From the NCBI GenBank assembly GCA_021827945.1, contig JAKATW010000141.1, positions 1 through 45,957 on the forward strand: a stretch of DNA of 45,957 nucleotides, in the 5' to 3' direction. The translations under genes and the position numbers were made by a program. The stretch comes from Thermoplasmata archaeon (GTDB lineage Archaea > Thermoplasmatota > Thermoplasmata > Thermoplasmatales > GCA-001856825). The notes below the pieces were generated by a model. It saw nothing but the letters and a program-made list of their open reading frames with translations. It was not told the DNA's origin and searched no databases. Positions 4,445 to 45,892 of this stretch are shown in pieces. Numbering within the stretch: position 1 is the stretch's first letter; each line of letters opens with the position of its first letter.

Positions 4445-4445
4445 T

Positions 4446-9160: not shown

Positions 9161-9180
9161 CCTTCCTTTAGTGATTTATC

Positions 9181-9190
9181 AAATTTATAA
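9181..9190 (-). promoter_or_regulatory. Putative TATA box of the nuo operon
   Basis: AAATTTATAA on + (TTATAAATTT on -), about 25 bp upstream of the nuoA ATG. Confidence 0.55.
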
Positions 9191-9221
9191 TTTGTTTTGT
9201 CTGTACTTGAAGTTTGGAACA

Positions 9222-10025: not shown

Positions 10026-10026
10026 A

Positions 10027-10877: not shown

Positions 10878-10883
10878 ATCACC

Positions 10884-12599: not shown

Positions 12600-12700
12600 A
12601 TAGATCTCCAGTGAGAAAGTGCATGACAATATAAAAATTCTCAGTTTTGCTATCTAAATTAAATTTAGTCCACTTAAACTGTATTTTAATGGAATAAAGA

Positions 12701-12904: not shown

Positions 12905-13624
12905 TCACAACCCCATGTGAATTAGCAAAATGTTGGGCACAATTCCTGCAATCATTCCCCTTATGAACAGGTCAACAAAGACGAACATTATCAGGCTTGT
13001 CCATGCGATCGCCTCGTGATGGCCGTTCAGTCTGGACTGGAACCTGTAGATTGAATTCTTCTTGTCCCGGTTGACGGGGCAGTTCACACAATCCTTGTAC
13101 CCACCGATAAGGTGCCTTACGGAATGGCAGGAGAAAGTATAGAATGTGACAGCCAGTGCGTTTATGGTCAGAATGACAGTACCCAAACTCACGGTAATTG
13201 CTCCAGTGTAGACGATGGAATGGTATATGTCGTAGTAGAAGAAGGGGAGTATGCCCCATGCAGTATACATGAAATATCTATGGATATTTTCGACCCTGAA
13301 GAAACCTGTCTCTCCGCTATAACCCCTACTCTTCGTATCCAGGCGGACATCCGTTGCACAGCTGTTGGGGTGCTTGAAGAGGTGTCTGTGGTAGTCCTTC
13401 CTGTATGCATAGCAGGTCAACCTGAAGAGAACAACGAGGGGGAGTATGAGCACGGTGGGGGTGTAGAATGGATCCGTCAGCCCATCGTAGACGGGTACCT
13501 TGTAAAGGATGATGAGGATCGAGCCCAGTATAGATATGAAAACGAACGACCAGAACCTCCAGTTCGGTTCAAGGAATTCCGGCGGTATCAGGTGTTTCAG
13601 TGGAGTTTCGTTTGCAGCTCTCAT
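12905..13624 (-). CDS. Membrane anchor of a mycobacterial Sdh1-like (type F) succinate:quinone oxidoreductase
   Basis: FRLTCYAYRKDY, YSGET, NIHRYF, SCHSVRHLIGG and LNGHHEAIAW resemble the Rv0249c/Sdh1 anchor family; about five TM helices; ATGA overlap with the Fe-S gene. Confidence 0.82.
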   Translation of the reverse strand: MRAANETPLKHLIPPEFLEPNWRFWSFVFISILGSILIILYKVPVYDGLTDPFYTPTVLILPLVVLFRLTCYAYRKDYHRHLFKHPNSCATDVRLDTKSRGYSGETGFFRVENIHRYFMYTAWGILPFFYYDIYHSIVYTGAITVSLGTVILTINALAVTFYTFSCHSVRHLIGGYKDCVNCPVNRDKKNSIYRFQSRLNGHHEAIAWTSLIMFVFVDLFIRGMIAGIVPNILLIHMGL

Positions 13625-14370
13625 CTCTTTCCACCGCCTTTTCTCCTGGACCTCACAAAAATAGCTATCGGATCATACTCGGCATTGACTGCCCTCTCCT
13701 TCTCTGGAATTATGGCATTATCTGTAATGTGTATCTCCTCAGGACAGACCTCGGTGCAGCACTTGGTTATGTTGCAATAGCCGAGACCCGCGTCCTTGTT
13801 CATGAATTCCGATCTATCCAGAGCGTCCAGCGGGTGCATATCCAAGGAGGCTGCCTTCACCACGTGCCTTGGACCAAAGTAACCGGAATTGTGCTCCCTG
13901 ATAACGTGACATACGTCCTGGCAGAGGAAACACTCTATGCACTTCTTGAATTCCTTAGATCTCTCTATATCTACCTGTGAAATCTTCCATGGTTTTTCCA
14001 GCCCCTCCCTGGGAGTAAATTTTGGGATCTTCTTTAGGAGGTCCCAGTTCTGTGAAACGTCTGTAACGAGGTCCTTTATCAGGGGGTAGGCAGCGATAGG
14101 AGACACTTTTATCTTACCGTCCTTGAAAGAATCAACGCGAGTCTTGCACATCAGTGAGGGCCTGTGGTTTATCTCTGCCGAGCAAGAACCACACTTTCCA
14201 GCCATGCAGTTCCACCTCAGAGATAGACTCGGGTCGATGTGTCTCTCTATATACTTCATGGCATCCAGGACGACCATTCCCTCTTCCTTCGGGACTTCAT
14301 AGTCCACGAACCTTCCCTCCTTCTCAGATGAGGGATCGTATCTGTATACACTGACCTTGATGCTTTCCAT
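13621..14370 (-). CDS. sdhB: Succinate dehydrogenase/fumarate reductase Fe-S subunit, Sdh1-like
   Basis: WNCMAGKCGSCSAE, CIECFLCQDVCH and CNITKCCTEVCPE..ITDNAIIP.KER are Sdh1-type signatures. Start re-called to ATG 14370, overlapping the upstream stop. Confidence 0.9.
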   Translation of the reverse strand: MESIKVSVYRYDPSSEKEGRFVDYEVPKEEGMVVLDAMKYIERHIDPSLSLRWNCMAGKCGSCSAEINHRPSLMCKTRVDSFKDGKIKVSPIAAYPLIKDLVTDVSQNWDLLKKIPKFTPREGLEKPWKISQVDIERSKEFKKCIECFLCQDVCHVIREHNSGYFGPRHVVKAASLDMHPLDALDRSEFMNKDAGLGYCNITKCCTEVCPEEIHITDNAIIPEKERAVNAEYDPIAIFVRSRRKGGGKR

Positions 14371-16094
14371 CAGTATTCCTCCTCCCTTATGAGTTTCCTC
14401 AGATTGTCTGGGATTTTTGGAACTTCCCTCCATTCAAGTCTCATTCCTCTCTCTCCCTTCGTGTAGATGATGTTCTTCCTCATTGCTGGGTCCTTCTTCG
14501 GATAGTCACTTCTCGCGTGGGCTCCCCTGCTCTCCTTCCTCTCTATTGCTCCCCTTACGATTGCTTCTGCTGCGGTAAGCATTGAGGGGAGCTCAAGAAC
14601 CTGAAGTAACCCCTTGTTGTACTTCAGGCCACCATGAACTGCAGCTTTCTTTGACAGGTCCTTCAGCTCCTGAATCGTTTCTAGCGCTTTCCTGAGGTTC
14701 TCCTCATTTCGTATGATACCCACGTTTTCGCTCATGTTTTCCTCAAGTCTCGAAGCCAGGTCGTAAGGGTTCAGTCCGTCCCTTCCGACCAACGAGTTCA
14801 CCCTTTCTATCTCTGCCGAAATGGCAGCATCGTCTATTTTTCCCTGTGATATCTTTTTCGAGTACGATGAGGCCCCCTCTCCGCTTCTCTTTCCGAACAC
14901 CAGAATGTCGGCCAGGGAATTTCCTCCAAGTCTGTTCGCTCCGTGGAGACCGCTGGCCACCTCGCCCGATGCAAACAACCCTGGAATATTTGTAGCAGTA
15001 CTCTCCGGGTCTACCCTGATTCCACCCATCTGGTAGTGCACGGTGGGAGCCACCTCCATCTTTTCCTTTGTGATGTCAACGCCGGCGAAATCCATGTACT
15101 GCTTGTACATGCTCGGCAATTTTCTCTTGATGAAATCCGCACCCCTGTGGGTTATGTCTAGGTACACCCCCCCGTGTGCTGTACCTCTTCCGGCCATTAT
15201 CTCCGCGTAGTTAGCCCTGGCAACTATATCTCTTGCGTCAAGCTCCATCTTCTTGGGAGAGTATCGCGCCATGTATCTCTCTCCCTGCGCATTCAATAAT
15301 ATCCCTCCCTCTCCCCTGACGCCCTCTGTTACCAGCAGTCCCTTGACGCCAGGAGGAAAAACCATTCCAGTTGGATGGAACTGTATCATTTCCATATCCA
15401 TCAGTTCAGCCCCTGCCTCAAAAGCTAGTCCCAGTCCATCGCCGGTAGATTCCCAGGAATTGGAAGTGACCTTGTATATCCTACCACAACCTCCTGTAGA
15501 AACGATGACTGCCTTTGAACTGAAAACGTGAATATCTCCGGTATTCAACTTTATTCCAATTGCCCCGACTACCCTTTCCCCATCCTTGAGGAGTTTGGTG
15601 ACATAGAATTCATCGAAGAACTTTATGTCCCTGTGAAGAATCTGATCCTCAAGGGTCCTTATTATTTCCAGGCCGGTCCTGTCGCCGACATGACAGAGTC
15701 TCCTGTACGTATGAGCTCCAAACGCTCTCTGCATAATGGTACCTTCTGGAGTCCTGTCGAATAGCGCACCATATTCTTCAAGTTCCCTGACCCTTTCGGG
15801 CGCCTCCTTAGACAGTATCTCTGCCATCCTGAAGTTTGAGATGTAGACTCCCTCCTCCATGGTGTCAGCGAAATGGACCTCCCAGCTGTCCTTGGGGTCG
15901 ACGTTTGCTAGTGCGGCAGCGATTCCCCCTTCAGCCATAACGGTGTGCGCTTTGCCCAAGAGAGACTTGGATAGAACGGTGACGCTCGAACCAGAATCGA
16001 ACGCGGCTATGGCAGCTCTCATCCCAGCTCCTCCAGCCCCTATGATCAGAACATCGGTCTCGTGTTTAATGTATTGTGAACTCATAACACTCAT
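14370..16094 (-). CDS. sdhA: Succinate dehydrogenase/fumarate reductase flavoprotein, Sdh1-like
   Basis: GAGGAG, SLLGKAHTVMAEGG, QFHPTGMV, EGVRGEGG, RD, HYQMGG, HGANRLGGNSL, ESRGAH. Confidence 0.92.
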   Translation of the reverse strand: MSVMSSQYIKHETDVLIIGAGGAGMRAAIAAFDSGSSVTVLSKSLLGKAHTVMAEGGIAAALANVDPKDSWEVHFADTMEEGVYISNFRMAEILSKEAPERVRELEEYGALFDRTPEGTIMQRAFGAHTYRRLCHVGDRTGLEIIRTLEDQILHRDIKFFDEFYVTKLLKDGERVVGAIGIKLNTGDIHVFSSKAVIVSTGGCGRIYKVTSNSWESTGDGLGLAFEAGAELMDMEMIQFHPTGMVFPPGVKGLLVTEGVRGEGGILLNAQGERYMARYSPKKMELDARDIVARANYAEIMAGRGTAHGGVYLDITHRGADFIKRKLPSMYKQYMDFAGVDITKEKMEVAPTVHYQMGGIRVDPESTATNIPGLFASGEVASGLHGANRLGGNSLADILVFGKRSGEGASSYSKKISQGKIDDAAISAEIERVNSLVGRDGLNPYDLASRLEENMSENVGIIRNEENLRKALETIQELKDLSKKAAVHGGLKYNKGLLQVLELPSMLTAAEAIVRGAIERKESRGAHARSDYPKKDPAMRKNIIYTKGERGMRLEWREVPKIPDNLRKLIREEEY

Positions 16095-16199
16095 CAAATT
16101 TTACTTACTTTTGCTCAGTGTTTAAGGAGATATAAATTTTTAGAGGCATTAAGATTATTTCAACGTTCCTTATATCTTTAAAGCGGTACCCTCACCCCA

Positions 16200-33395: not shown

Positions 33396-34499
33396 ATGGG
33401 TAAGGATTATTACGCTGTACTGGGAGTAGATAGAAAGGCGTCCAAGGACGATATTAAGAAGGCATACAGGGACCTAGCAAAGAAGTACCATCCAGATCTG
33501 AACCCCCAGAACAAGAAAGAGGCAGAGGAAAAATTCAAAGAGATCAGCGAAGCATATGAAATCCTCATGGATGATCAGAAGAGGGCACGTTTCGATCAGT
33601 ACGGGGAGGAAGGAGTAAAGTTCCAGGGAGGATTTGACTGGAATCAGTTCCACCACTACCAGGATATCCAGGATATATTCGGAGACCTGTTCTCCCAGTT
33701 CGGTTTTGGGGGTGGAGGATTTGGGAACCCGTTCGGTGGGTTCTCGGGTCAGCAGAGGGAACTGAGGGGACAAGACGTTTACGTAGAGATTCCCATAGAC
33801 ATAAGGCGGATAGCGAGGGGCGAAAAGATCGAGGTGTACTACTTCAGGGAAATGAAGTGTGAAGAGTGCAATGGGACTGGCTCGTCAACAAAGAAGCTCC
33901 TGACATGCCCCACGTGCAGGGGACGCGGATACGTGGAGAGATCCTCCAATCAGGGGTTCATTGTCTTCAGGACCACTGAAGTCTGCAGGACATGCAATGG
34001 AAGGGGAAAGGTTCCAGAAAAGGTATGCCACGTCTGTTCAGGATCCGGATATACCAGAAAAAAGGACAAGATAGACATTTCACCGCCTCCTGGCATCCAT
34101 GAAGAAGAGGTTTACATACTGAGGGATAAGGGGAACTACAGACCCGGTGGCTCCGGAGACTTGAGAATAAAGTTTGACATCGATTACATGGAATTCAGAA
34201 GAGATAATGACGACCTGGAGAAGGACATTCAGGTAGACTTTATAGACGCCATTATGGGTGGAAAAGTAAAGGTCCAACTGTTGAGGGGAGAGAGGGAGGT
34301 GGACATACCAGCAGGGACTCAACCAGAGGAGAGAATAGTCCTGAAGGGAGAAGGTATCCAGAGGAAGAGCGGCAGGGCTAACGCTGACATAGTACTGAAG
34401 GCAAAGATAGCTCTTCCGAAGAAGATATCAAAGAAGCAGCGGGAGCTGCTCGAACAGTTCAAGAATGAGAAAGGTTTCTTTTCGCAGTTTCACTTGTGA
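33396..34499 (+). CDS. dnaJ: Co-chaperone DnaJ
   Basis: J domain with HPD, G/F-rich region, four CxxCxGxG repeats. Confidence 0.97.
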
Positions 34500-35188
34500 A
34501 TGGAGAAGTACATTCTCTTGTTATTCTTTCCCTTATTTTCGATCTTGTAAATCTCTATTTCGCCAACCTCAGAAGTGTTCTTGACATGAGTTCCGCCATC
34601 TGGCTGGATATCGATATCACCTATCCTGACAACGCGGAGAGTATCGGTTGAAGGAAGGAGTCGTAGATCGACCTTCAGTGCACCTTCCATTCTCAAGATT
34701 TCATCTCTCTTCATCGAGAGAACTGTCACTTCTTGATTTTTTCTAAGCTCTTCGTTGACCCTCGTCTGCAGTGACTTGGAAATTTCACTGTTCCAGTCTT
34801 TGAAATTGAAGTCTATCCGTGAGTAGTCTTGGTTTATCTGGTTACCAGTTATCATTGCTCCAAACTCCTTCATTGCTATAGATGATACAACATGAATTGC
34901 GGTATGTTGTCTCATGAGCAGGTAGCGTCTTTCCCAGTCGATTTTCAGCTTGACCTTCTCTCCCACTGTCGGCTGGAAATCTGTCCTATGCACAATCTCG
35001 TCCAGCTTGGTCACTTCCGTCACCTCATATTTTCTAGTCCCTTCCATTGTTCCAAGGTCGGATGGCTGTCCTCCGGATGCGGCATAGAATATGGTTCTGT
35101 CCAGTATCACTCCATCTCGAATCTCAAACACCTCCGCATCCAGTTCTCTAAGATATGAATCCTCGAGATATAGTTGAATTGTTTTCAT
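34490..35188 (-). CDS. alaX: Free-standing alanyl-tRNA editing protein AlaX (AlaX-M type)
   Basis: [42 protein letters not shown]; start re-called to ATG 35188. Confidence 0.9.
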
Positions 35189-35214
35189 CGTCCCACTTCT
35201 GTTGAAGACATAGG

Positions 35215-35784
35215 TCACTTATCTATGTAAAACCAGTTATTTTCCTCGCTCGCAAAGTCTTCCCTCTCCTTCTTCGTGGTCTTTCTCAGTGCGAACTCAC
35301 AGAAATTGTCACCATCGGGTATTGCCTTGAGGTGTTGCAGCTTATAATTGGGATTGTAGGACATATATTTTGCAATATCGACGTAGCAGTACATCCTTCC
35401 AAGGTGATCCAGGCCTAGCTCCTTCCAAGTTTTCGCTAGCACGCACCCATAAGCGGCCTCTCTCTTTTCACCGTCTTTCTCAAATTCCTCAACCTTATCA
35501 TGCATACCGAATTCAGGCAATCCATAATATCTGCCCTTGTCAAAGTTCTCTGGTCTATTGGTGAGTCCCATCTTCTCGACCTCTTCCCTTGTCTTCTCTC
35601 CGATTTTCCTGCCATATTCCTTGATTGCCTTGGAAATCACCTCTTCGCCCTTCTTCTCTCCAAGCTCCCTCACCAGAGTCTCTGCATACGCAAGGTGAAG
35701 CAACGCGATCCTTCTGCTAGTTATCGCAATGTCCTCCTTTGCCCTCTCAATATCGACACTTCTATTTTTGTTCACATCAAACAC
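35215..35784 (-). CDS. ATC-hydrolase-family / V4R-like protein of unknown function
   Basis: Helical N-terminus (LVRELG...G...I..AI..YG...G), then C.LA..W...G...LG..YC.VD.A....YNP...L.H......GD..CEF, the pattern of the L-2-amino-thiazoline-4-carboxylate hydrolase family. Confidence 0.75.
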   Translation of the reverse strand: MFDVNKNRSVDIERAKEDIAITSRRIALLHLAYAETLVRELGEKKGEEVISKAIKEYGRKIGEKTREEVEKMGLTNRPENFDKGRYYGLPEFGMHDKVEEFEKDGEKREAAYGCVLAKTWKELGLDHLGRMYCYVDIAKYMSYNPNYKLQHLKAIPDGDNFCEFALRKTTKKEREDFASEENNWFYIDK

Positions 35785-35788
35785 ATCC

Positions 35789-36121
35789 TTATTCTGACTC
35801 TCCCTTTCTGAGATAGACTAGATCCTTTACTACTTTTAAATTCTTTACTGGTTCAACAACTAGATCAGTATCAACTTTCGTTTGACAGGCTAGTGATACC
35901 TTTCCGTTAACCGACACTGTACAATTGCTGCATATACCAATCTTGCAAGCGGTATGGCTATAATAAGAAATGGTACTGTCAAGGTTCTCATAGATATAAT
36001 CAAGAGCATCCAATACTGACATTCCTTCCTGTAGTGGTATTTGATAACTCTGGTAATTTGTCTTAGATCCGTGGGAATTTTCATTTCTGGCAATTTTAAT
36101 CGTAACCAATTTCTTTTCCAT
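35789..36121 (-). CDS. [2Fe-2S] ferredoxin corresponding to the SdhB N-terminal domain only
   Basis: GMSVLDALDYI.E.LD, CKIGICSNC...NG...LACQT, VVKDLV and then a stop; no 4Fe-4S/3Fe-4S domain; AGGTGA site before ATG 36121. Confidence 0.88.
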   Translation of the reverse strand: MEKKLVTIKIARNENSHGSKTNYQSYQIPLQEGMSVLDALDYIYENLDSTISYYSHTACKIGICSNCTVSVNGKVSLACQTKVDTDLVVEPVKNLKVVKDLVYLRKGESE

Positions 36122-36133
36122 TTTATTCACCTA

Positions 36134-37906
36134 TCAGTGTGCCCCTGGGGTGTCAGAGTGAGATTTCATCATCATCTTCATCATATCAAAATAGGGGAGT
36201 TTCCCTTCAGGTGGTCTTATACTGTCAAAATCCACAGACCTTGTTTCTGTCTTGAAACTATTCTTGTCCCTTTTGAATATGATCTCCTTTAACCAATTGT
36301 CATTGTCAGTGATTGGAATATCGGATCTATAATGAACTCCTCTGCTTTCTGTCCTTATCAAGGCTGCATTAGCAGATAATTCCAAGATGGTCAGTATATT
36401 CTCCAGCTCCAGAATTTCAATCAATTCCTTATTGTACTTGAGGGAAGAAACATCCTGTAGACAAGTGTGTCTATACTCTTCCTTCGCATTCTCTATGAAT
36501 TCTAGGTATTCTTCCAGTCCCTTTTCCGTCCTTATGGGTCCCAAATTACTGTATGTTTCCGTCTGAATTCGCTTCAAAAGACTAGATGGTTTATTCCCCC
36601 CCCTCCTAGAGAGAATACCATCGATTTTCTTCTCGAATTCCTGAATCTGATTTTGATCCAACTCCTTGAACTCTTTTCCATTTGCATAAGTAGCTGCACT
36701 TCCACCTGCAATTGCGCCTTCAACAAGCATTTCTGTGGTCGCAGCAACCACCCTATTTGCTCCAAAAATGCTCATGGTCGCTTCGCCTGCTGCAAAAAGT
36801 CCATTGAGAGTAGATGAGAATTTTTCATCGATAACAATTCCACCTTCAAAATACTCAGCAGATGGCCCAACCTCTACCCCGGAACCATGTACTAATTTAT
36901 CTTTCAGATTTGAAAAATCTGTGCCCTTGTATCTCCATTTCGGATAGATTTTCTCAACATTGGCGAATGCTTTCTCTTTTGAAACACCTTTCAGCGTGTA
37001 GAGGATGCTAGAGTGAGTAGTACCATTCCCATTGAGGATCTCTTGGTAAGTAGCAATAGATACGAAACTCTTGTTCCACTCCGTCGATGTTCCAATCTTT
37101 ACTACTTCTGGGTCATACGCGTCTAGAAACCTTTCATTTTTAGTATTAACAAGCTCTCCTCCCACCATGGAGTGAAGTATGTATGTGAAAATACTTCCAT
37201 TCCAGATAGGCGGCCAATGAGTAACGTTACAACAGAAAGTCACAAATTCCATATTTCCAAGAGAGGCTCCAGCTCTATAGGCTATTGCAAGACCATCGCC
37301 TGCAAGCTCACGTGAACCTGCATTGTATATGTAAGCTTTGTGCCAGCCCCCTGTTGCTATGACCACCGCCTTGGCCTTGAATATAATGAACTCTCCTGTC
37401 AGTACTCTTAGACCTATACCACCAGAAACTGTCCCCCTTGAAGTTAACAGTTCCAAGAACATGACATCGTTGATAAGCTTCACATTCAGCTCCTCGGCTT
37501 TCTTCAGCAGAGTGTGGGTGATGTTGAATCCTTCAGTGTCAATTGCGCGTTCCTCATCATAGTCCACTCTCATCCCCCAATCTATCAATTCCTCGACCAC
37601 CTTTGGTGCATCTTCTACATATCTCTTCACTAATTTCTGATTTCCTAAGAAGTAGCTCTGAGTTATAATATCGTTGAAGAATTTCTCCTTGTTGTCGGTT
37701 ACTACTCCCTTGAAACCTAGCTCGTTTAGACTCTTTCCGTCAAGAGTTAGGTCTGCTCCTGCCATAGGTGATGCCCCACATTTGGCGGCTTCTCCCTTAC
37801 TTATGAGGATAACCCTTGACCCATGATCTCCTGCTTCAATGGCTGCTCGTAAACCCGCACCTCCTCCTCCTACGACGAGGACATCAGCTTCAAGTGTGGA
37901 AGACAT
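36134..37906 (-). CDS. SdhA/FrdA/NadB-superfamily flavoprotein with a non-canonical active site
   Basis: GGGGAG, ATGG, GDG...AYRAGA..GNMEF, GLFAAGE, GANR and ESRGVHYR.D.P are retained; the covalent-FAD His and dicarboxylate motifs are altered (see findings). Confidence 0.9.
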   Translation of the reverse strand: MSSTLEADVLVVGGGGAGLRAAIEAGDHGSRVILISKGEAAKCGASPMAGADLTLDGKSLNELGFKGVVTDNKEKFFNDIITQSYFLGNQKLVKRYVEDAPKVVEELIDWGMRVDYDEERAIDTEGFNITHTLLKKAEELNVKLINDVMFLELLTSRGTVSGGIGLRVLTGEFIIFKAKAVVIATGGWHKAYIYNAGSRELAGDGLAIAYRAGASLGNMEFVTFCCNVTHWPPIWNGSIFTYILHSMVGGELVNTKNERFLDAYDPEVVKIGTSTEWNKSFVSIATYQEILNGNGTTHSSILYTLKGVSKEKAFANVEKIYPKWRYKGTDFSNLKDKLVHGSGVEVGPSAEYFEGGIVIDEKFSSTLNGLFAAGEATMSIFGANRVVAATTEMLVEGAIAGGSAATYANGKEFKELDQNQIQEFEKKIDGILSRRGGNKPSSLLKRIQTETYSNLGPIRTEKGLEEYLEFIENAKEEYRHTCLQDVSSLKYNKELIEILELENILTILELSANAALIRTESRGVHYRSDIPITDNDNWLKEIIFKRDKNSFKTETRSVDFDSIRPPEGKLPYFDMMKMMMKSHSDTPGAH

Positions 37907-37918
37907 TTTCAAGATTTA

Positions 37919-39340
37919 TCACTTTCCTGCCGACGCCTTCTCAATTTCTAAGGGTTTGTCCGTCAGTATCTTCTTTCTGTTTATATAAGTGAAGATTATT
38001 CCAAATACCACCCAGATAGGAATAACATAGTAGACTAGAGAAATCGGCCAAGCCAGACCTAGAACGGAATAATAGCCACCAATCAAGAAGAGTATCGATG
38101 ATATCGTAGGTACAATAATGTGTGGAAGAATCTTTAATTCAGTCAAACGCCTGTAGAGGAAAGCAAGAGTCTGATTGACTATTAGATGATACAGCCACCA
38201 GAGGACGGACAGGAAGGTTCCGAACAAAAGCCACGCGTAAAACGTTCCATCATTCATTCCATAGAAGTGTACAAAGACTATCAAAGATAAAACCGTCAAG
38301 ACAACGGTAAAGGTGAAAATTGTCAATACTGCGACATACGGACTTTTGTACTTCGGATGTACTCGAGACAGAGACTCCGGTAACACTCTATCTCTCGATA
38401 GGGAAAGGAATATTCTTGCAGTTTGTGAGCCATTAAAAACTGGCGCCATTATTTGAGCAATTTCAATGACGATGAACGAGACTAATAGTACACCGCCGCC
38501 CAAGTATTTCTCCGTGAAGTAAAATCCTGGTGAAAAATAGGAAAGCGCAGTACTTAGGGAGGAACCAGCAATTGAAACTACAGAGTAAACTTCAAGAATT
38601 TCAATTCCAATAATTATTACGGCAGCTGCAACAATAGCATTCTTTATAGTCCTGAACGGAGTTTTTGTTTCCTCTCCGAACATTACTATCCCACCGTAAC
38701 CAGAATAACTCATGAATCCACCAACTACTACTGCTGTGAAGAAACCAGAGAGACCCCCCCAGGAGTTTCCAATGTTGAAATATGATATATTGTTGTTAGG
38801 GCTTATCGCTATCAGGGCTATGCTAATTGCCCCAAAAATCGCAATTTCGAACATTGATATAATAATGGCTAGATTGCCGCCGACCGACACAGACCTGTAA
38901 CCAACAACCAGATAGAGTACCGGTCCTATTAATGATGCAAGAATGACCACGTAAAGTGGAAGAGAAATGTTGAAGAGTGCCATCAGGGCAGACCAAAGTA
39001 ACCAACCCCCCAATATGCTAGTAAATGGCATCGCGCTTGACATGTACAAGATCTGTAGGAATCCCACTGTTTTACTAAAGTATTTGTTTGGAACACTCCT
39101 TTCAACGAATTTGTAATAACCTCCAGGTGTTGCAACCTTCTTGCTGTAATAATAAACTGAGACTATAGCAGCAAGCAACATTATTCCCCCGATCAAGAAA
39201 GCCATTGGAGCAACTGGGCCGGAATAAGCCATTGCAGTTGACCCGGTGATTGCAAAAGCTGAAGCTGGGAACATAACAGCTACTGCCCAAAAAACCAGCT
39301 GCCAAAAAGACAGACCACTTCTATTAAGTTCATTGGTCAT
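37919..39340 (-). CDS. APC-superfamily amino acid/amine permease
   Basis: About 12 TM helices, GGYY.FV, SYSGYGG...GEETK.P, ARI...SRD.VLP...SRVHPKYKSPY; ATG 39340 lies about 23 bp from a TATA box. Confidence 0.9.
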   Translation of the reverse strand: MTNELNRSGLSFWQLVFWAVAVMFPASAFAITGSTAMAYSGPVAPMAFLIGGIMLLAAIVSVYYYSKKVATPGGYYKFVERSVPNKYFSKTVGFLQILYMSSAMPFTSILGGWLLWSALMALFNISLPLYVVILASLIGPVLYLVVGYRSVSVGGNLAIIISMFEIAIFGAISIALIAISPNNNISYFNIGNSWGGLSGFFTAVVVGGFMSYSGYGGIVMFGEETKTPFRTIKNAIVAAAVIIIGIEILEVYSVVSIAGSSLSTALSYFSPGFYFTEKYLGGGVLLVSFIVIEIAQIMAPVFNGSQTARIFLSLSRDRVLPESLSRVHPKYKSPYVAVLTIFTFTVVLTVLSLIVFVHFYGMNDGTFYAWLLFGTFLSVLWWLYHLIVNQTLAFLYRRLTELKILPHIIVPTISSILFLIGGYYSVLGLAWPISLVYYVIPIWVVFGIIFTYINRKKILTDKPLEIEKASAGK

Positions 39341-39377
39341 AGTATATATCAAACTGTCTTTATAATTAGTCTTATTT

Positions 39378-39391
39378 TCTTACATGTAAGA
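39378..39391. promoter_or_regulatory. Perfect 14-bp palindrome TCTTACATGTAAGA, candidate operator
   Basis: Self-complementary; just upstream of the minus-strand TATA (TTATAAAG, 39358-39365) of the permease operon. Confidence 0.6.
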
Positions 39392-39740
39392 TGGTGCACT
39401 TCAATATAATTGAACAAAAATGACGTGAGATACATCAGAATAATCTCAATTAAGTGCTTTCAAACTACCTGACAGCTCTAAGATTTGAAACATATGTCCA
39501 ATGAAACTGGTAGCGATTAAGTCTTCCAAAATACTCCTAGAACTCAGAAAGTGAACTTTATGTAAATATTTCGAATTTTGTGGTGGTCCGGTTCTACCAT
39601 TTTATTCCACTCTCCATCTAGAAATGATTTTAATTCGGAAAATGTTTTTAAGATTGGTGAAAATACTGAATGTTATTTATTCAAATAACCTCAATGCAGA
39701 AAATTTAACTATAAGTAATAGATCGATTACTGCGATCTAG

Positions 39741-40442
39741 ATGTTTTACCGACTCCATTTATTGATTGAGCATAGCGAAGACTGGTCAATGCTGTGCAAG
39801 GAATTTGATGTTTCTGCAAAACCTCTACTCTATTTCCTTGCTAATATTAATGGAAGTTACGTGCGCGCTGAACTTACCAAAATTAGTTGTAATCATGACG
39901 AGTGCAAGGATGGATATTATCTGGATCAATTTGTGTACAAAGTCAAGAAGAACAAAGAAGTCTATGGAGTAGTATATTTTAATAGAGAAGACAGACATTT
40001 CAATAAGATCAGGTACATCCTCACCCTCGAAGACTACAGTTCATCAATAAGAAAACTTATCAATGATCGCCTTGGATTTTTTATCTCGACTAAAGGACAT
40101 AAGAACCTCGAGGAATTCACAGTACTATTCCCATTCGGTCGCAGAACGGAATTTGAAGAGCTCAGAGATCAACTCGACGAGATGGGAACGGTACACCTAT
40201 TTGATGTCACAAAAGTGAGCGATACGGTACTTCCTACTTATCCCCGTCTGACTCAAAGGGAAACTGAAGTGATGCAAACAGCCTGGTCCAGTGGTTATTT
40301 CAATTATCCTAAGAATATCAACCTTGAGGAGATGGCAAGAGACATGAGCATTAAAAGATCTACCCTAGATTATCATTTGCGTGAAGGTGTTAAGAAGTCC
40401 ATACAATTTCTTATTGACACGGGAATGTATGAGTGGCAATAA
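39741..40442 (+). CDS. Bat/HTH-10-type archaeal transcription regulator
   Basis: C-terminal LTQRE.EV...A...GYF.YPK...LEE.A..M.I..STL.YHLR...KK; divergent from the permease operon. Confidence 0.9.
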   Translation: MFYRLHLLIEHSEDWSMLCKEFDVSAKPLLYFLANINGSYVRAELTKISCNHDECKDGYYLDQFVYKVKKNKEVYGVVYFNREDRHFNKIRYILTLEDYSSSIRKLINDRLGFFISTKGHKNLEEFTVLFPFGRRTEFEELRDQLDEMGTVHLFDVTKVSDTVLPTYPRLTQRETEVMQTAWSSGYFNYPKNINLEEMARDMSIKRSTLDYHLREGVKKSIQFLIDTGMYEWQ

Positions 40443-40488
40443 TTCTCAAATGATTTTTGATGAGAACTCAATCGAATGGCTCTCCAGT

Positions 40489-41385
40489 TCATAAACCAAT
40501 GAATGGGATTAGAATTGATAACAAGGCTATAATCACAAAAAAGATTCCGATGAATATGTTGGTTGAAACGAAGAGTTTCATGATGCGCTTATCTGGGTCC
40601 ACCAGAGCCCTAAGATAAGATGTCAATAGAGAGAGTCCCAGAAGCACATAGATCGCGAAGACCCCGATTCCCACGTAGAAGGTAAAATAAGACCTGAATT
40701 CGAACCCGGTCAGAATCGTGACAATTACTGCCAGCAATGCAATTGGGAAGAGTATCCGCATAGACTGTTTTGTCGTACGGTTCACGGGGAGCATCGGGAC
40801 AGACGCTGCTGCATAGTCCTCCCTGTATTTGATAGAGAGGGACCAGATGTGGAGAGGGGTCCATATAAATATTGTCAGGAACATCAAGAATGCGACTACA
40901 TTGTATGAAGATGTAAATGCATAGAAACCTGCAAGTAGAGGAGCTCCCCCTGAGTACGCTCCCAGTATAATGTTCCAGGAGGTTCTCTTTTTTGAAATTA
41001 GGGAATATATTATCACGTAGTCGAAAATGCCGCTTGCCATAAATGCGAAGGACCAGAAGGATCTAAAAATCGCCATGACGAGTGTTGCGGTAATAAGGAT
41101 AAGGCCACCATAGAGTGCTATACTTGGCTTCATCCTTCCTGATGGGAGTGCTCTGTTCATCGTTCTCTTCATCTTCTTGTCAATGGATAGATCGAAATAG
41201 TTAGATATCGACTCGGCCCCCATCAGTCCCAGTGCGATGTACACCGCCACATAGAGAAATCCAATCAGATCAAGACTCCTATGTATGCTGAGGGCGAACA
41301 CTTCACCAGCAATTCCTGTTATCAGGAGAAACACCCAGACTCGTGGTTTTGTCATGATTATGAAATCGCTGACGAAATTTCCCAT
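40489..41385 (-). CDS. ctaB: Protoheme IX farnesyltransferase (heme O synthase)
   Basis: TKPRV, D..ID..M.RT.NR.LPSG, KKRT..NI..G..SG, WTP.H.W.L...Y.EDY..A.VPMLP. Confidence 0.93.
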   Translation of the reverse strand: MGNFVSDFIIMTKPRVWVFLLITGIAGEVFALSIHRSLDLIGFLYVAVYIALGLMGAESISNYFDLSIDKKMKRTMNRALPSGRMKPSIALYGGLILITATLVMAIFRSFWSFAFMASGIFDYVIIYSLISKKRTSWNIILGAYSGGAPLLAGFYAFTSSYNVVAFLMFLTIFIWTPLHIWSLSIKYREDYAAASVPMLPVNRTTKQSMRILFPIALLAVIVTILTGFEFRSYFTFYVGIGVFAIYVLLGLSLLTSYLRALVDPDKRIMKLFVSTNIFIGIFFVIIALLSILIPFIGL

Positions 41386-41757
41386 TGAGAGGGTAGTATC
41401 GAACTCTATAAATTTATGCCGTCACAATACCGGCAAACGGTCATCGTTGAATTTGATATCCAAATGTCGAAAAAGTGATGCACTTTAGAGGAAATATGGT
41501 AATCAAAGTGAACTCTGGACCAAATAAACAGAGTCGTATTCATACCGTTGCTTTTGCTCTTACACAGTATTTTTCCCCGTAAGCCAAAGGCTATTTATAA
41601 TGACGTTAGATGCAGATGGGCTGTCCGTCAATGTGCACCGAGTTCATGAGGAAACGAAGCAGAGAACTATATTTCTCCTCGTGAAATGTCAGTAAACGAA
41701 TAACGAAAGAAGGAATAGACAACCTTTCGGTATATTCTGGGGTGCGTTAAGCGATTT

Positions 41758-41829
41758 GGGCTGGTAGATCAGTGGAAGATCGCCTCCTTGGCATGGAGGA
41801 GGCCCGGGGTTCAAATCCCCGCCAGTCCA
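41758..41829 (+). tRNA. tRNA-Ala(GGC)
   Basis: Cloverleaf: acceptor GGGCTGG/CCAGTCC with G3.U70, D stem GATC/GATC, anticodon arm CCTCC-TTGGCAT-GGAGG, T arm CGGGG-TTCAAAT-CCCCG, discriminator A; CCA not encoded; no intron. Confidence 0.97.
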
Positions 41830-42704
41830 TTGACAATGTCGTAGGATTTGGGGGATTTGAACATTTTATCCTCTTTGAATAGTTTCGGGTTTTGGTCGTG
41901 CATTCGTCTTATGGCCTCTGCTGAGTCCAGTTTTGTATAGATGGCTGTTGTATCGAGTCTCTCGTGGCCTAGCATTTGACTGATGGTTTGAAGGTCCATG
42001 TTTTCCATGACCAGTTTAACGGCATATGTGTGACGGCATCTATGCCACTTGAAGCCTTTAACTCCTGTTCTCTCCCGGATCCTCTTGGAAAGGTTCTCCA
42101 TGTAAGACGAGGTTATCTTTCCCTTCCTGGTTGTAAATACGTAATTCAAGTTCTGGTGATTCCTTAAGGGTAGCCATTTTCTTATGCTCTCAAATGTGAA
42201 GGAATCAAGGTAAACATCCCTATTCTCCTCGCCTTTCCCCCTCTCAACTGTCAAATAGTTCTCATGAATATCCTTGACTTTCAAGTTGGCGATCTCGCTT
42301 GCCCTCAATCCTGTGTTGAGTGCAAGGATAATCATCGTATGGTCCCTGTTGTCTTCCAGGGTTTCACCTTTCGATCTTTCAAGTAATAGCTTTACCTCAT
42401 TGGCATCGTACCTATTTATGGTGAATTTCTTTTTTGTTCCTGGAATATACTCAAAAGTATCCCATCCCCTGAATAGTATCCACCTGTTAAGGTACTTAAT
42501 ATATCCGTTGATCTTCTGCTTAGTGGCCCCCATTCTTCTCGCTTCCTTAAGAAACTCGTGGACACTCTCTCTATTTTCCAAGTCTATGGATTTGGAAAAG
42601 AAACGGATCTTCCTAACAGCATCTTCAATGGTTGAAGCAGAGAAGTTACGTCCATACATCCAGTCCTCGAATTCAATCAATTTATTCTCAATATTTTCGT
42701 TCAT
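41811..42704 (-). CDS. int: Tyrosine recombinase/integrase
   Basis: Catalytic residues R (TGLRASE), K (RGKG), HxxR (HRCRH), H (LGH) and Y (TTAIY). Confidence 0.95.
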   Translation of the reverse strand: MNENIENKLIEFEDWMYGRNFSASTIEDAVRKIRFFSKSIDLENRESVHEFLKEARRMGATKQKINGYIKYLNRWILFRGWDTFEYIPGTKKKFTINRYDANEVKLLLERSKGETLEDNRDHTMIILALNTGLRASEIANLKVKDIHENYLTVERGKGEENRDVYLDSFTFESIRKWLPLRNHQNLNYVFTTRKGKITSSYMENLSKRIRERTGVKGFKWHRCRHTYAVKLVMENMDLQTISQMLGHERLDTTAIYTKLDSAEAIRRMHDQNPKLFKEDKMFKSPKSYDIVNGLAGI

Positions 42705-43339: not shown

Positions 43340-44090
43340 AATCGGAAATCAAATCAGCGAACTCAGCTGCCTCAATTCTAAAGTAGACAAATATGCTTGT
43401 TATGAAGTTACAAACGGCAACATTGACTTTGAGTATATTGACCTTGTCTGTGACTCGCAACATTTTGCAAGATTCAGCGTCGAAAAGACAGGAAGTGACG
43501 GAGATATTACCCTAAAAGTAGGGCAGGAACAGAAAGTCCTTTCGATCTTCGTGGACAATTATAGGGCGACCGTATTGTCATTTCGTTCGTTAGATCAAGA
43601 ACAGTTTTGGCAATTTATCGGATTTGTTTCTATTAAGCATGCATATGGTGCTGCTACAGCGATCAGAGTATTGATTGAAGATTTTTTGAAATTAAATTAC
43701 TTATCGCCAGGTATTATCAAATATCTAGGAAAGAGAAATTTAAAGAAACTATATATGAAGGTGGAAAAGGACAAGACTGATCTTGCTTCAGAAGCAGTTA
43801 TGATGATAACTGTTAAGAATCTGTTTTTAACACTGATGGGTATAGATCCAAAAAGTAATGGATTAAGGGGTCACATAAACGATACCTTAAAGAAATTTTA
43901 CAGGAGTAGAGCAACGAAAAATCGACGGTTTAAGAAAGAACAATGGGAGAAGCTTAAACTTGTCTACGACACGTCTTCGAAAATTATTCATGGTCAGCAA
44001 TACGATGCATATCAACTTTTTAATGAAGTTAATGGAATTTTTGAGATTTTTAAAGAGTATTCAGAGAAAGAAGGGAAGTGGACCCAATGA
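43326..44090 (+). CDS. Hypothetical protein with a C-terminal HEPN-like helical domain
   Basis: 254-aa ORF; C-terminal LKLVYDTSSKIIHG resembles the HEPN Y..RS.IVHG motif with Arg replaced by Ser. Confidence 0.55.
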   Translation: MTQIKIGNQISELSCLNSKVDKYACYEVTNGNIDFEYIDLVCDSQHFARFSVEKTGSDGDITLKVGQEQKVLSIFVDNYRATVLSFRSLDQEQFWQFIGFVSIKHAYGAATAIRVLIEDFLKLNYLSPGIIKYLGKRNLKKLYMKVEKDKTDLASEAVMMITVKNLFLTLMGIDPKSNGLRGHINDTLKKFYRSRATKNRRFKKEQWEKLKLVYDTSSKIIHGQQYDAYQLFNEVNGIFEIFKEYSEKEGKWTQ

Positions 44091-45892
44091 GTGATAAAGA
44101 ATCTGAAGAAGTTCTTCTGGATTCAATCTCGCTACAGGTAGCAGCTCAAGTTATAAAGCACATCTCTGCAGGACTCTATAGGAGCCCGGGCAGCTCCATA
44201 AAGGAACTAATTAGCAACTCCTTTGACGCGTGTGCAACAGAAGTGAATGTAGATTTCTATCTCGGAACATTTAAGTCTACTCAGTTTGAATTCGAGAAAA
44301 TTGTTATTAGAGATAATGGGGCTGGAATGACCCTCGACACTCTCTACGAAGTTTTTACTCACATTGGCAGTAGTGGAAAAGATAAGCCTTCGACATCAGA
44401 AAACCCAGATTGCAAATTGAGGCCGATCATTGGTAGAATGGGAATTGGTATGCTTTCTGTTGCATCTGCATGTACTGGATTCGTCGTTAGAACCAAGAAA
44501 AGAGGCGAACAAAAAGAGTATACAGCTAAGATATCGTTGTCATTTTTCAAAGATAGAATACAGAGATCAGAATCTATGGACAAATCTAAGTTAGGTAATG
44601 TTGAGCTTTATTCCAGAGATGTGAACAATGACGAAAGCTATACAGAAATAGAGATAAGTGAATTCACTCCTCCTTTTCTTGAGAACATAGTGCCCACTCT
44701 TAGCACTTCTTACTTATATAACTACATAAGAGGGAAAGAAAGCTACGAAGAATACTTTGAGCTCTTTGTATATAACGTTCAACAGCAAGGAAAGCTCGCA
44801 AACGTGGCAGTGATTGATAAGTTGATTGCAGATGTTGGCACCATGGCTCCGGTTGAATATTTACCAGACGGACCAGTAAGAAAAATCATAAAACTAAACG
44901 GAAAAGAGTATCAAATACCAGGGACGGACACAAAGGAGTACGATCAATTACGTAATAAACCAAAATCATTCAATTTTAATGTCATTGCTAATATCTACGT
45001 CAAAGGTCTTGACGGTAGATCAAGGCTAAGGAATTCTTTCAAAATATACAAACCGTTCATTTATCCCGTATTAGAAGATGTGACAGATTCGGTCGATTTC
45101 GAAGACCTTGATCCATATGTTTATTTACTTCCACCAAGAGATGACAAGGTCCTAAACGATGACGGTGTTTATGAAGAAACTTCAGTTAGAGGTTACTACT
45201 ACCACCAAAATAAGAGAATTCAACCAAGCGAATTTAGCGGGCTTCTGTATCGAGTATTCAACGTAGCGCTAGGCAATGAATTTGGAGACCCGATGAAGTT
45301 CTTTGTCGACGCCTATTTGGTATTTCAGCAATCGTTTGTTGAAGTTTACTTGGACAAAGGATTTCAACAAATCGTCAACCTGGATCGAGAAGGCCTGTTT
45401 GAAGGCAGTAACATGTACAGATACTTGCGAAACTACCTTGTTAACACAATCAGAGGGGACGCTCCACCAAAACCTGCCCCGTCAAAGCCCGAAACTTCAA
45501 AGGAGGAACAGGAAAAGCAATTTCAACAAGACCAAAATCAAACCTTTAAAGATAACAAAAGAGACGCGATAGTTCCAAAAGTGAAAAGAAGAAGGAGCAA
45601 TACAAGAAAAGCCAAGATAGAAAAGAGAAGTGAGCAGGTTGAACAGCGGCTACTTGATGATTTCGGTGCCCAAATTTTGACCAAGGAAAGAACCGATGAG
45701 GTTAAGGAAATGAGGGTAGAAATTGAAGGAGATGAGTTAATCGCTTATATTCCAAAATTCCAAAAGAGGAAAGAGCTTTGGGACCTTTTATGCATAGGCG
45801 TCATAGCGAATACGAGAGACGACAATAAAATAAAGGAAAAACTTGTAAAATTTATACTTGACCTATATGAAGAAGTAGAAGTTGGGAAGTGA
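44087..45892 (+). CDS. GHKL (MORC/Hsp90-like) ATPase
   Basis: LY.SP..SIKELISNSFDA, IRDNGAGM, F..IGSS.K, IGRMGIGMLS, later NLDREG; ATG 44087 overlaps the upstream stop (ATGA); ORF track starts at GTG 44078. Confidence 0.88.
   Translation: MSDKESEEVLLDSISLQVAAQVIKHISAGLYRSPGSSIKELISNSFDACATEVNVDFYLGTFKSTQFEFEKIVIRDNGAGMTLDTLYEVFTHIGSSGKDKPSTSENPDCKLRPIIGRMGIGMLSVASACTGFVVRTKKRGEQKEYTAKISLSFFKDRIQRSESMDKSKLGNVELYSRDVNNDESYTEIEISEFTPPFLENIVPTLSTSYLYNYIRGKESYEEYFELFVYNVQQQGKLANVAVIDKLIADVGTMAPVEYLPDGPVRKIIKLNGKEYQIPGTDTKEYDQLRNKPKSFNFNVIANIYVKGLDGRSRLRNSFKIYKPFIYPVLEDVTDSVDFEDLDPYVYLLPPRDDKVLNDDGVYEETSVRGYYYHQNKRIQPSEFSGLLYRVFNVALGNEFGDPMKFFVDAYLVFQQSFVEVYLDKGFQQIVNLDREGLFEGSNMYRYLRNYLVNTIRGDAPPKPAPSKPETSKEEQEKQFQQDQNQTFKDNKRDAIVPKVKRRRSNTRKAKIEKRSEQVEQRLLDDFGAQILTKERTDEVKEMRVEIEGDELIAYIPKFQKRKELWDLLCIGVIANTRDDNKIKEKLVKFILDLYEEVEVGK

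Follow-up and report, generated by a model that had tools for sequence, protein, structure and literature searches.

What does an archaeon with two canonical succinate dehydrogenase (sdh) operons do with a third, aberrant and anchor-less SdhA/SdhB-like gene pair? The question is raised by a five-gene block on contig JAKATW010000141.1 of Thermoplasmata archaeon assembly GCA_021827945.1, whose positions 1-45,957 we refer to as the window (the whole 45,957-nucleotide stretch that was analyzed); the genome is 87% complete. An earlier note, made from the letters of the window alone, had described the block as a candidate catabolic system made up of a permease, a re-purposed SdhA-fold flavoprotein, a mini-SdhB, an ATC_hydrolase/V4R protein, and an HTH_10 regulator. 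We propose, and hold to be probable, that an imported compound is oxidized here by a soluble three-protein flavin/iron-sulfur (Fe-S) module that is conserved across many anaerobic bacteria and archaea.

Four of the genes lie close together on the minus strand with intergenic gaps of 6, 3, and 4 bp, which confirms the tight spacing that the note had seen. They encode a permease of the APC superfamily (477 amino acids [aa]; 37919-39352), which is the first gene of the operon; a divergent SdhA-fold flavoprotein with a flavin adenine dinucleotide (FAD) domain (592 aa; 36134-37912); a mini-SdhB that consists of the [2Fe-2S] N-domain only (113 aa; 35789-36130); and an ATC_hydrolase-family protein with a V4R-like fold and a Cys3Asp site (189 aa; 35215-35784). 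The gap between permease and flavoprotein becomes 12 bp if translation of the flavoprotein starts from its second ATG, which is the case in database entry P0001 (590 aa). On the far side of a 388-bp divergent promoter/operator region (39353-39740), a 233-aa HTH_10 regulator is encoded on the plus strand (39741-40442). The absence of a membrane anchor also held up, as Pfam detected neither an Sdh_cyt nor a CCG gene in the block. In both canonical sdh operons of the window (8789-12629 and 12905-16097), SdhB is full length, and two Sdh_cyt genes are present in the first operon. In the second, the genes for SdhA (14370-16097) and SdhB (13621-14433) are followed by a 239-aa open reading frame (ORF) without a Pfam family (12905-13624, minus strand), possibly an unusual anchor or a third subunit of that operon.

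The active site of the flavoprotein is not that of succinate dehydrogenase

The flavoprotein has the domain architecture of SdhA and FrdA, that is, FAD_binding_2 (148.5 bits) followed by Succ_DH_flav_C (87.5 bits). Its best solved relatives are SdhA and FrdA, with mycobacterial SdhA (7d6v, 286.8 bits) as the closest profile match in the PDB. No curated NCBIfam cut-off is reached, with 291 bits against 718 for TfrA, 270.7 against 567.3 for TIGR01812, and 170.9 against 452.75 for nadB (TIGR00551). The protein thus stands outside the characterized clades, in line with the view that the fold has been re-purposed.

We compared 18 members of the family with both SdhAs of the window in one alignment. 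In complex II, the FAD is bound as 8-alpha-N3-histidyl FAD, a His/Arg/His/Arg set binds the dicarboxylate and serves catalysis, and the TEGxRG motif forms the proton path. In the column of the covalent-FAD His, both window SdhAs have His, and each of the 18 family members has Cys or Ser instead. Of the other canonical motifs, FHPTG has become FCCNV, TEGxRGxGG has become YILHxxVGG, RDIVSR has become EWNKSF, and HYxMGG has become EYFEGG, while the Arg of GANR is retained (Arg387). Three of the four His/Arg/His/Arg residues are therefore changed, and the site for succinate, fumarate, or aspartate has been replaced, as the note had suspected. The family has invariant residues of its own (Trp190-His191, Glu278-Trp279-x-Lys281, Glu353-Tyr354-Phe355, and Thr393-Glu394-Met395) and a conserved extension at its C terminus, the last residue of which, His592, is invariant. 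The one retained active-site Arg suggests that the substrate probably still bears a carboxylate. Judging from the aligned motifs, we think it very likely that this substrate is something other than succinate, fumarate, or L-aspartate.

These replacements bear on the most conservative explanation, namely that the pair is a third succinate dehydrogenase or fumarate reductase, or else that a small Fe-S protein here assists an L-aspartate oxidase. The Pfam domains, the best PDB matches (SdhA and FrdA), and the best NCBIfam names (TfrA and SdhA) all speak for it. Nevertheless, the NCBIfam scores are far below cut-off, the covalent-FAD His and three of the four substrate residues are replaced family-wide, neither an anchor nor a full SdhB is present, and the genome already possesses two canonical operons. 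We rejected this explanation as highly improbable.

Characterized enzymes share some features with the pair and differ from it in others. The module shares with complex II (SdhA/FrdA plus SdhB/FrdB) the flavoprotein Pfam pair, a four-Cys [2Fe-2S] partner, and the order of flavoprotein gene then Fe-S gene, but it is devoid of the covalent-FAD His, the substrate and proton-shuttle motifs, the [4Fe-4S]/[3Fe-4S] domain, and the anchor, and it adds a conserved C-terminal tail and a V4R-like partner. NadB, a soluble SdhA-fold enzyme that oxidizes an amino acid at its C-N bond, is similar in having no covalent FAD, but it acts alone without an Fe-S partner, and its substrate-site motifs differ. The best-scoring curated models for both proteins are those of TfrAB, the thiol:fumarate reductase of methanogens, which is also a soluble, anchor-less archaeal pair of the SdhA/SdhB type. 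The scores are nevertheless low (291 versus 718 and 85.9 versus 385), and the TfrB model spans 488 positions with further cluster and CCG domains, of which the mini-SdhB matches the first ~100 only.

In a maximum-likelihood tree of 83 family members, with the two SdhAs as outgroup, the window flavoprotein belongs to a clade of seven (Shimodaira-Hasegawa-like approximate likelihood ratio test 99) together with database entries P0002-P0004 (63-73% identical) and a Nitrososphaerota group (P0075 and loci L067 and L072). We also noted an in-frame TGA at codon 86 of an otherwise intact flavoprotein gene on the chromosome of Sporomusa acidovorans DSM 3132 (L038, 7256-7258). The same position is a Cys in P0108 (TQGCFLNNQ) and a Tyr in the window protein. 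From these sequences, the TGA and the Cys may form a selenocysteine/cysteine pair, and some family members may be selenoproteins.

A mini-SdhB and an ATC_hydrolase-type protein accompany the flavoprotein in bacteria and archaea

Homologs of the flavoprotein (~591 aa, 47-73% identical) make up at least 120 clusters, the window's own entry aside. They come from Anaerolineae, Desulfatiglandales, Bathyarchaeia, Culexarchaeum, Nitrososphaerota, and other groups, and those listed are named just "FAD-binding protein" or [quoted passage not shown]. Lack of conservation of the gene trio elsewhere had been named in the earlier note as grounds for abandoning the proposal, and we therefore ran the neighborhood survey that it called for. 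A scan of one genome per species yielded 116 relatives, and 80 loci were kept; a further 28 closer loci (40-61% identity) were retrieved from metagenomes with the window flavoprotein alone as query. Of the 80 genome loci, 74 contain a mini-SdhB, which immediately follows the flavoprotein in 68; four of the six misses have 106 bp or less of DNA left. An ATC_hydrolase-type ORF is found in 64 loci and lies within 1.5 kb in 56. The metagenome loci gave a similar picture (mini-SdhB, 23/28; ATC, 22/28), with the exact order flavoprotein, mini-SdhB, ATC in 15. Conservation of the trio is hence borne out across both sets of loci, which span many bacterial and archaeal phyla. No published description of it was found in the open-access literature, supplements not covered; a flavoprotein from work on anaerobic benzene degradation (PMC13416013) proved to be a GlcD-type enzyme that is irrelevant to the module.

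The second and third genes are linked particularly closely. The stop codon of mini-SdhB and the start codon of ATC overlap by 4 bp in three loci (L129, L131, and L133), and the two proteins are fused into one polypeptide in 13 of the 80 genome loci and one of the 28 metagenome loci (L147). Pfam confirmed the fusion in L033, with Fer2_3 at residues 7-107 and ATC_hydrolase at residues 134-274. In the maximum-likelihood tree, the fused form is restricted to a crown group, mostly Thermodesulfobacteriota, while window-type ATC genes accompany flavoproteins tree-wide, including the deep Thermotogota/Bipolaricaulota and Bacillota branches. Given the fusions, the near-universal adjacency, and the overlapping stop and start codons, we infer that the ATC protein acts in a complex with mini-SdhB.

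The third position is not always held by ATC. In L067 and L072, flavoprotein and mini-SdhB are followed by an M24 hydrolase and then by an APC permease like that of the window, with no ATC gene; both ATC and M24 occur in L052, L066, and L076. This alternation suggests that a hydrolytic step is coupled to the oxidation. The window's genome itself contains a paralogous second system, the parts of which lie at the ends of two contigs (C64 and C138). On C64, the gene for an APC permease (L094, 2079-3692, minus strand) is divergent from that for a flavoprotein paralog (3933-4583, plus strand), which is 52% identical over residues 5-206. On C138, a truncated mini-SdhB (L116, 2412-2663, minus strand; 49% identical) precedes an M24 creatinase/PepQ-like hydrolase (1282-2496, minus strand), and there is no ATC gene. 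We assume that the two ends join into one system.

The Fe-S partner is truncated and the third protein has a moderate likeness to V4R domains

The mini-SdhB (Fer2_3, 86.6 bits) has kept the ligands of its [2Fe-2S] cluster; Cys62, Cys67, Cys70, and Cys82 are invariant in 25 sequences, the window's two full-length SdhBs included. It ends at residue 113, where the cluster domain of SdhB would start, and has no Fer4 match, whereas the canonical SdhBs have Fer4_8 and related matches.

The ATC protein passes the Pfam cut-off for PF14196 (65 bits versus 28.1; profile positions 7-143 of 145) and matches no NCBIfam model. Across 67 aligned sequences, Cys114, Asp136, and Cys162 are invariant, and a Cys at about position 133, spread over two adjacent columns, is present in 66. 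A cleaner alignment of 23 sequences left Gly42, Cys114, Gly124, Cys133, Asp136, and Cys162 as the sole invariant columns. We modeled the protein with AlphaFold (predicted local distance difference test [pLDDT] 93.3, predicted template modeling score [pTM] 0.86) and compared the model to solved folds. The nearest were PoxR (Z 8.1 over 149 residues), DmpR (7.8), Bet3/TRAPPC3 (7.0), the V4R protein MJ1460 (5.8), and H-NOX (5.2), where a Z of ~8 is close to the background of the structure-alignment tool for models without a clear match. A sequence search of the PDB returned no meaningful relative, the top match being an unrelated protein at E 0.028. The label V4R that the note had attached to this protein reflects a moderate fold likeness and not a Pfam V4R match.

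The V4R-type sensors PoxR, DmpR, and MopR have, like the ATC protein, three Cys and one acidic residue. They differ from it in being N-terminal phenol-binding domains of sigma-54 activators; sequence identity to it is just 9-13%, and their metal ligands come in another order and at other spacings. A domain survey had connected ATC_hydrolase with V4R and HNOB on the basis of three conserved cysteines common to them, and it cites the founding ATC_hydrolase member as an enzyme reported to cleave a thiazoline ring (PMC5847659). The zinc site of DmpR is described as Cys151, Glu172, Cys177, and Cys185, beside the ligand pocket (PMC7264223). Our comparison of Cys3Asp with this Cys/Glu/Cys/Cys set is one of residue type, not of residue-by-residue structural equivalence. 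By this analogy, the ATC protein is most likely a V4R-like binder of small molecules with a Cys3Asp metal site, and the metal is most likely zinc.

The same cysteines invite a different explanation, in which the Cys3Asp domain is an Fe-S cluster station that replaces the C-terminal [4Fe-4S]/[3Fe-4S] domain of SdhB in the electron wire. Three Cys plus one Asp is a known ligand set of [4Fe-4S] clusters, and in the 14 fusions ATC follows Fer2_3 exactly where the cluster domain of SdhB would be. On the other hand, the fold is V4R-like, the homologous Cys/Glu/Cys/Cys site of DmpR binds zinc, and the ~28-residue linker of the fusion is modeled at pLDDT <50 (residues 102-129), unlike the tight packing of a wire. 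We regard an electron-wire role as quite improbable.

A further possibility is that the ATC/V4R protein is a ligand-binding accessory, that is, a carrier, a specificity factor, or a sensor that tunes the flavoprotein, and neither a hydrolase nor an electron-transfer subunit. Its best structural relatives (PoxR, DmpR, MopR, Bet3, and H-NOX) sense or hold ligands, four protein ligands (Cys3Asp) would make the metal structural and not catalytic, and the ATC domain is also fused to nitroreductase, an unrelated flavoenzyme family. Yet the founder of the family is reported to cleave a thiazoline ring, as cited in PMC5847659, and M24, a true hydrolase, holds the third position in some loci, which suggests that the hydrolytic step belongs there. 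An accessory role seems to us a serious though rather unlikely alternative.

Structure prediction did not help to choose. A complex of flavoprotein, mini-SdhB, and ATC scored 0.00 in two runs without controls and has no bearing either way, and the model of the L033 fusion (pLDDT 72.9, pTM 0.52) is uninformative on domain packing. As side observations, ATC_hydrolase domains are fused to nitroreductase-family flavoproteins in a 76-member cluster (~466 aa), and in Sporomusa a nitroreductase-like gene (L038, 9514-10395) lies directly after mini-SdhB. The ATC/V4R domain seems to associate with flavoenzymes of more than one type.

The five genes are inserted as one block between conserved genes

We searched relatives for AlaXM, mapped the window proteins onto the neighborhoods of four congeners, and aligned the junctions. 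The genes for dnaK, dnaJ, alaXM, and haem O synthase are directly contiguous in all four congeners (L108-L111). In the window, 5300 bp (35189-40488) are interposed between the start of alaXM (35188) and the stop of haem O synthase (40489), and this block comprises exactly five genes, the regulator included. The overlap of alaXM with the ATC gene given earlier was a mistake; alaXM starts at ATG 35188, a start backed by the junction alignment and by an NCBIfam match beginning at residue 14, and not at GTG 35218, so the two genes do not overlap. A housekeeping link between the block and alaXM was also rejected, the adjacency being due to insertion alone. As the five genes arrived as one block, the regulator belongs with the permease and enzyme genes.

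PF14196 occurs in only one of 41 genomes of the order, the window's own. Among 40 relatives searched, there was no orthologue of the flavoprotein (best matches were canonical SdhAs, at most 35% identical), none of the ATC protein, and none of the regulator (matches at the level of the HTH_10 domain only, at most 38% identity). The block is AT-richer than the sdh operons, as the note had remarked (40.9% versus 48.6% G+C, with 45.7% in the 10 kb of left flank), though this is not unique to it because the DNA to the right of 41757 is AT-rich as well (39.3% G+C). We found no convincing direct or inverted repeats at the borders and no integrase or tRNA gene within the block. As part of the general reading, we think that 35189-40488 is probably a horizontally acquired catabolic island.

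The insertion is not peculiar to one assembly. Single contigs of two public runs (X9 and X10), whose study carries no flag as a potential source, span both junctions (33653-41787 and 33833-41787) at ~99% identity, with 64-65 letter differences across about 8 kb. Because these contigs bridge both junctions, the insertion is a stable feature of a natural population. Window DNA was found in 14 listed public runs, none of them RNA, labeled as mine drainage, mine tailings, and sediment metagenomes. No contig joining across an empty site was seen in four public runs, where contigs cannot prove absence. Of the X9/X10 differences listed, ~30 fall within ~250 bp of alaXM (34691-34944) and only seven in the 5.3-kb island; a further 35 lie beyond those listed, so that no rates are derivable. 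The uneven distribution may reflect recombination within alaXM or a recent spread of the island.

A separate feature lies 1.3 kb from the island. A tRNA-Ala(GGC) gene (41757-41830) overlaps the 3' end of a gene of the Phage_integrase family (41811-42704, minus strand), contig depth in the public runs rises to hundreds or thousands over ~41758-41830, and many contigs end at 41829-41831. To the right of the integrase, up to 45957, the 39.3% G+C DNA encodes an HATPase_c_3 protein (44078-45892). The DNA from 41757 rightward looks like a separate element integrated at the tRNA gene. We did not count the tRNA-Ala and integrase genes in the island because they lie beyond the conserved haem O synthase gene. 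Elsewhere, on the metagenome contig of L135, two inverted copies of a DDE_Tnp_1 transposase (251-1258, plus strand, and at the right end, minus strand) enclose the trio together with an MFS fragment. This arrangement resembles a composite transposon and fits a mobile cassette.

The permease and regulator are local partners of the trio

The permease scores above cut-off for AA_permease (49.4 bits versus 24.6; residues 19-464), also matches AA_permease_2 (39.9 bits), and remains below every NCBIfam subfamily cut-off (TIGR00909, 68 bits versus 556.8). Permease and regulator had been counted as part of the system in the earlier note. With these queries, neither was found in the 108 related loci, except for the APC permease in L067 and L072. 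There, close homologs of the window permease (phmmer E 7e-165 and 6e-163) stand beside flavoprotein, mini-SdhB, and M24, and the genome's own second copy of the system likewise has an APC permease. The regulator, with zero matches in 80 + 28 loci, was rejected as a conserved partner.

Bat-type regulators combine a recognizable GAF/PAS-type sensor domain with HTH_10. The name Bat-type, given to the window protein by the note, holds for its HTH_10 domain (57.6 bits versus 23.1; residues 170-219) but not for a sensor domain, as residues 1-165 match no Pfam or NCBIfam family. In the 388-bp region between regulator and permease (30.7% G+C), we found three inverted repeats, each with perfect 7-bp arms, at 39378-39391 (TCTTACATGTAAGA), 39672-39689, and 39719-39739 (TAGATCG-N7-CGATCTA); the last, a 21-bp palindromic site, occurs once in the window. 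A palindromic site, as reported before, is therefore present, but three or more such repeats also arose in 117 of 2000 shuffles. The palindromes are only weakly above chance and are the weakest part of the observation.

Neighboring genes point to amino-acid derivatives

We clustered all ORFs within 5 kb across the 80 genome loci and annotated the recurrent clusters. Most frequent were cysteine-desulfidase-like proteins of the UPF0597/SDH_alpha type (21/80 loci), two groups of M20 amidohydrolases (15/80), and M24 creatinase/PepQ-like hydrolases (13/80), followed by an S15 X-Pro dipeptidyl peptidase in three loci (in L081 and L082 immediately before the flavoprotein gene) and an Asp/Glu/hydantoin racemase in three. 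Regulators were of the MarR (11/80), GntR (11/80), and TetR (5/80) families. Aminotransferases also recurred, as did five types of uptake system (MFS, peptide ABC, branched-chain ABC, TRAP, and APC). L-cysteine desulfidase is the sole PDB relative of the SDH_alpha proteins (9fsl, E 1.6e-32), whose Atlas cluster is named UPF0597, and the PDB relatives of the M20 proteins include ILR1-like 1xmb (E 2.1e-69) and Bacillus subtilis YxeP 1ysj (E 2.1e-68). CyuA/YhaM is the cysteine desulfidase (PMC12647591, PMC9040844, and PMC5423876). ATC is present in 21 of 21 loci with an SDH_alpha-like gene and in 15 of 15 with an M20 gene (Fisher p = 0.008 and 0.03), p values that overstate the association because the genomes are related. 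An operon that recurs in Desulfobacterota reads MarR, flavoprotein, fused mini-SdhB~ATC, SDH_alpha-like, M20 (e.g., L016, L033, L034, and L036), and the cultured S. acidovorans has the order MarR, ATC, MFS, flavoprotein, mini-SdhB, nitroreductase, M20, SDH_alpha-like. In three Thermotogota loci (L084, L087, and L090), an 832-aa molybdopterin oxidoreductase with a C-terminal Fer4 comes right after ATC (3151-5649 in L087). Its best NCBIfam match is PhsA (320.6 bits, below cut-off), and it is possibly a redox partner or a second catalytic step.

Going by the names of these families, the neighbors seem to point to the catabolism of amino-acid derivatives, in many bacteria one that would end in an N-acyl amino acid and cysteine or serine. 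Cysteine forms adducts with formaldehyde and other aldehydes, the thiazolidine-4-carboxylates. A thiazolidine-4-carboxylate or proline analog had been guessed at in the earlier note, and this guess is plausible and compatible with our data, on circumstantial grounds that rest on neighbor family names. A preprint describes thioproline as formed from formaldehyde and cysteine and freed from peptides by the M24 peptidase PepP, and has Escherichia coli PutA oxidize it to 2,3-thiazoline-4-carboxylate, the hydrolysis of which gives cysteine and formate (bioRxiv 10.1101/2020.03.19.981027). As a possible functional analog, PutA-based thioproline disposal offers the oxidation of thiazolidine-4-carboxylate, the subsequent hydrolysis, and the feeding by an M24 peptidase, but PutA belongs to the unrelated Pro_dh family and the E. 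coli route has no dedicated ring hydrolase or Fe-S subunit. No Pro_dh match was found in the window's genome at 87% completeness.

Every part of the module would find a place in such a route. The flavoprotein would oxidize thiazolidine-4-carboxylate to the thiazoline, ATC would open the ring to N-formylcysteine in a reaction of the founder's type, M20 would deformylate the product, and the desulfidase would take the last step. AtcB, the hydrolase for L-2-amino-thiazoline-4-carboxylate (L-ATC) that founded the Pfam family, offers a second precedent. L-ATC is converted to N-carbamoylcysteine and then to cysteine, and the order of genes in the relatives, with ATC followed by M20 amidohydrolase and cysteine-desulfidase-like genes, echoes this route. 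Like AtcB, the window protein passes the Pfam cut-off; unlike AtcB, it is coupled, and at times its relatives are fused, to a redox module, and hydrolysis of L-ATC is putative here. A cyclic imino acid of the proline/thioproline type, for example, thiazolidine-4-carboxylate, is our preferred but tentative candidate for the class of substrate, and on the present sequences the odds are against it. S-(2-succino)cysteine, the pathway for which is linked to YxeP-like M20 enzymes, was prompted by the YxeP-like M20 proteins and is disfavored, the succinate-site residues being gone and no recurrent acetyltransferase being nearby.

How the module may work

Taken together, we envisage the following sequence of events. 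The APC permease would take up an amino-acid-like carboxylate, which the SdhA-fold flavoprotein would dehydrogenate at its non-covalently bound FAD. Electrons would exit singly via the [2Fe-2S] cluster of mini-SdhB to an acceptor encoded outside the block. The ATC_hydrolase/V4R protein, tied to mini-SdhB and with Cys3Asp probably holding zinc, would bind the oxidized product or open it hydrolytically. The divergently transcribed HTH_10 protein would regulate the block.

Several observations weigh against this reading. First, ATC is absent from 16 of the 80 loci, including L067 and L072, which are the nearest genome relatives of the window flavoprotein and in which an M24 gene takes third place; ATC is thus not an obligate subunit. 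The suggestion that the V4R-like protein is a third subunit is favored by the 14 natural fusions but cannot be extended to every member. Second, the fold scores of the ATC protein are moderate (Z 8.1; best Foldseek E 6.7e-4, to Bet3), and Cys3Asp could hold an Fe-S cluster instead of zinc. Third, the window block has no cysteine-desulfidase-like gene, the six M20 genes of the genome all lie elsewhere, and SDH_alpha (PF03313) gave no match in the genome at 87% completeness; for want of those genes in the block, the cysteine-releasing logic is borrowed from bacterial relatives, whose flavoproteins are ~47-50% identical. Fourth, the neighbor counts are not independent, as the genomes are related, and the names PepQ, YxeP, and CyuA are far under curated cut-offs or have no NCBIfam match. 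Finally, most homologs come from anaerobes (Thermodesulfobacteriota, Anaerolineae, Thermotogota, Bipolaricaulota, Bathyarchaeia, and Sporomusa).

The last point favors running the chemistry in reverse. Fumarate and urocanate reductases share the SdhA fold, and the module might be a reductase in which low-potential electrons reach the FAD via mini-SdhB and reduce an unsaturated or oxidized amino-acid derivative, with ATC/V4R holding the substrate. The Thermotogota molybdopterin oxidoreductase with Fer4 domains after ATC, the nitroreductase-family gene after Sporomusa mini-SdhB, and the ATC/nitroreductase fusion clusters would fit such a direction. By contrast, the host looks respiratory because of its haem O synthase, complex I genes, and two succinate dehydrogenases, and the neighbors of the module are catabolic hydrolases and uptake systems rather than genes of a fermentation type, with no conserved adjoining partner that reduces ferredoxin. 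We judge the reductive direction unlikely and retain the oxidative one.

The most far-reaching version of the oxidative proposal would have a widespread system in which the SdhA fold is re-tooled for thiazolidine-4-carboxylates, a zinc V4R subunit opens the thiazoline, and an M20 deacylase and cysteine desulfidase lead on to pyruvate in many bacteria, with a cassette that crosses between bacteria and archaea and with selenocysteine in some members. That all of this is right, we consider improbable.

Implications

The fold and the electron-transfer logic of this module are familiar; its active site, truncated Fe-S partner, V4R-type partner, and substrate are not. If our reading is true, the flavoproteins would form a new branch of the SdhA/FrdA/NadB/AprA superfamily with its own active site and a truncated Fe-S partner, and V4R/ATC would be a partner fold not known to work with flavoenzymes. 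The module is common, with at least 120 clusters whose identities run from about 47% upward, in addition to the 108 loci. As its members are annotated only as FAD-binding or succinate dehydrogenase flavoproteins, metabolic reconstructions of anaerobes from sediments and the subsurface have probably taken them for fumarate or succinate enzymes. Because S. acidovorans DSM 3132, which carries the module, is in culture, the question is directly testable. The repeated association with genes for cysteine-desulfidase-like proteins and amidohydrolases suggests that derivatives of sulfur amino acids are handled by a route not yet studied. In the window, the module has clearly come in together with a transporter and a regulator of its own, the five genes forming a single block.

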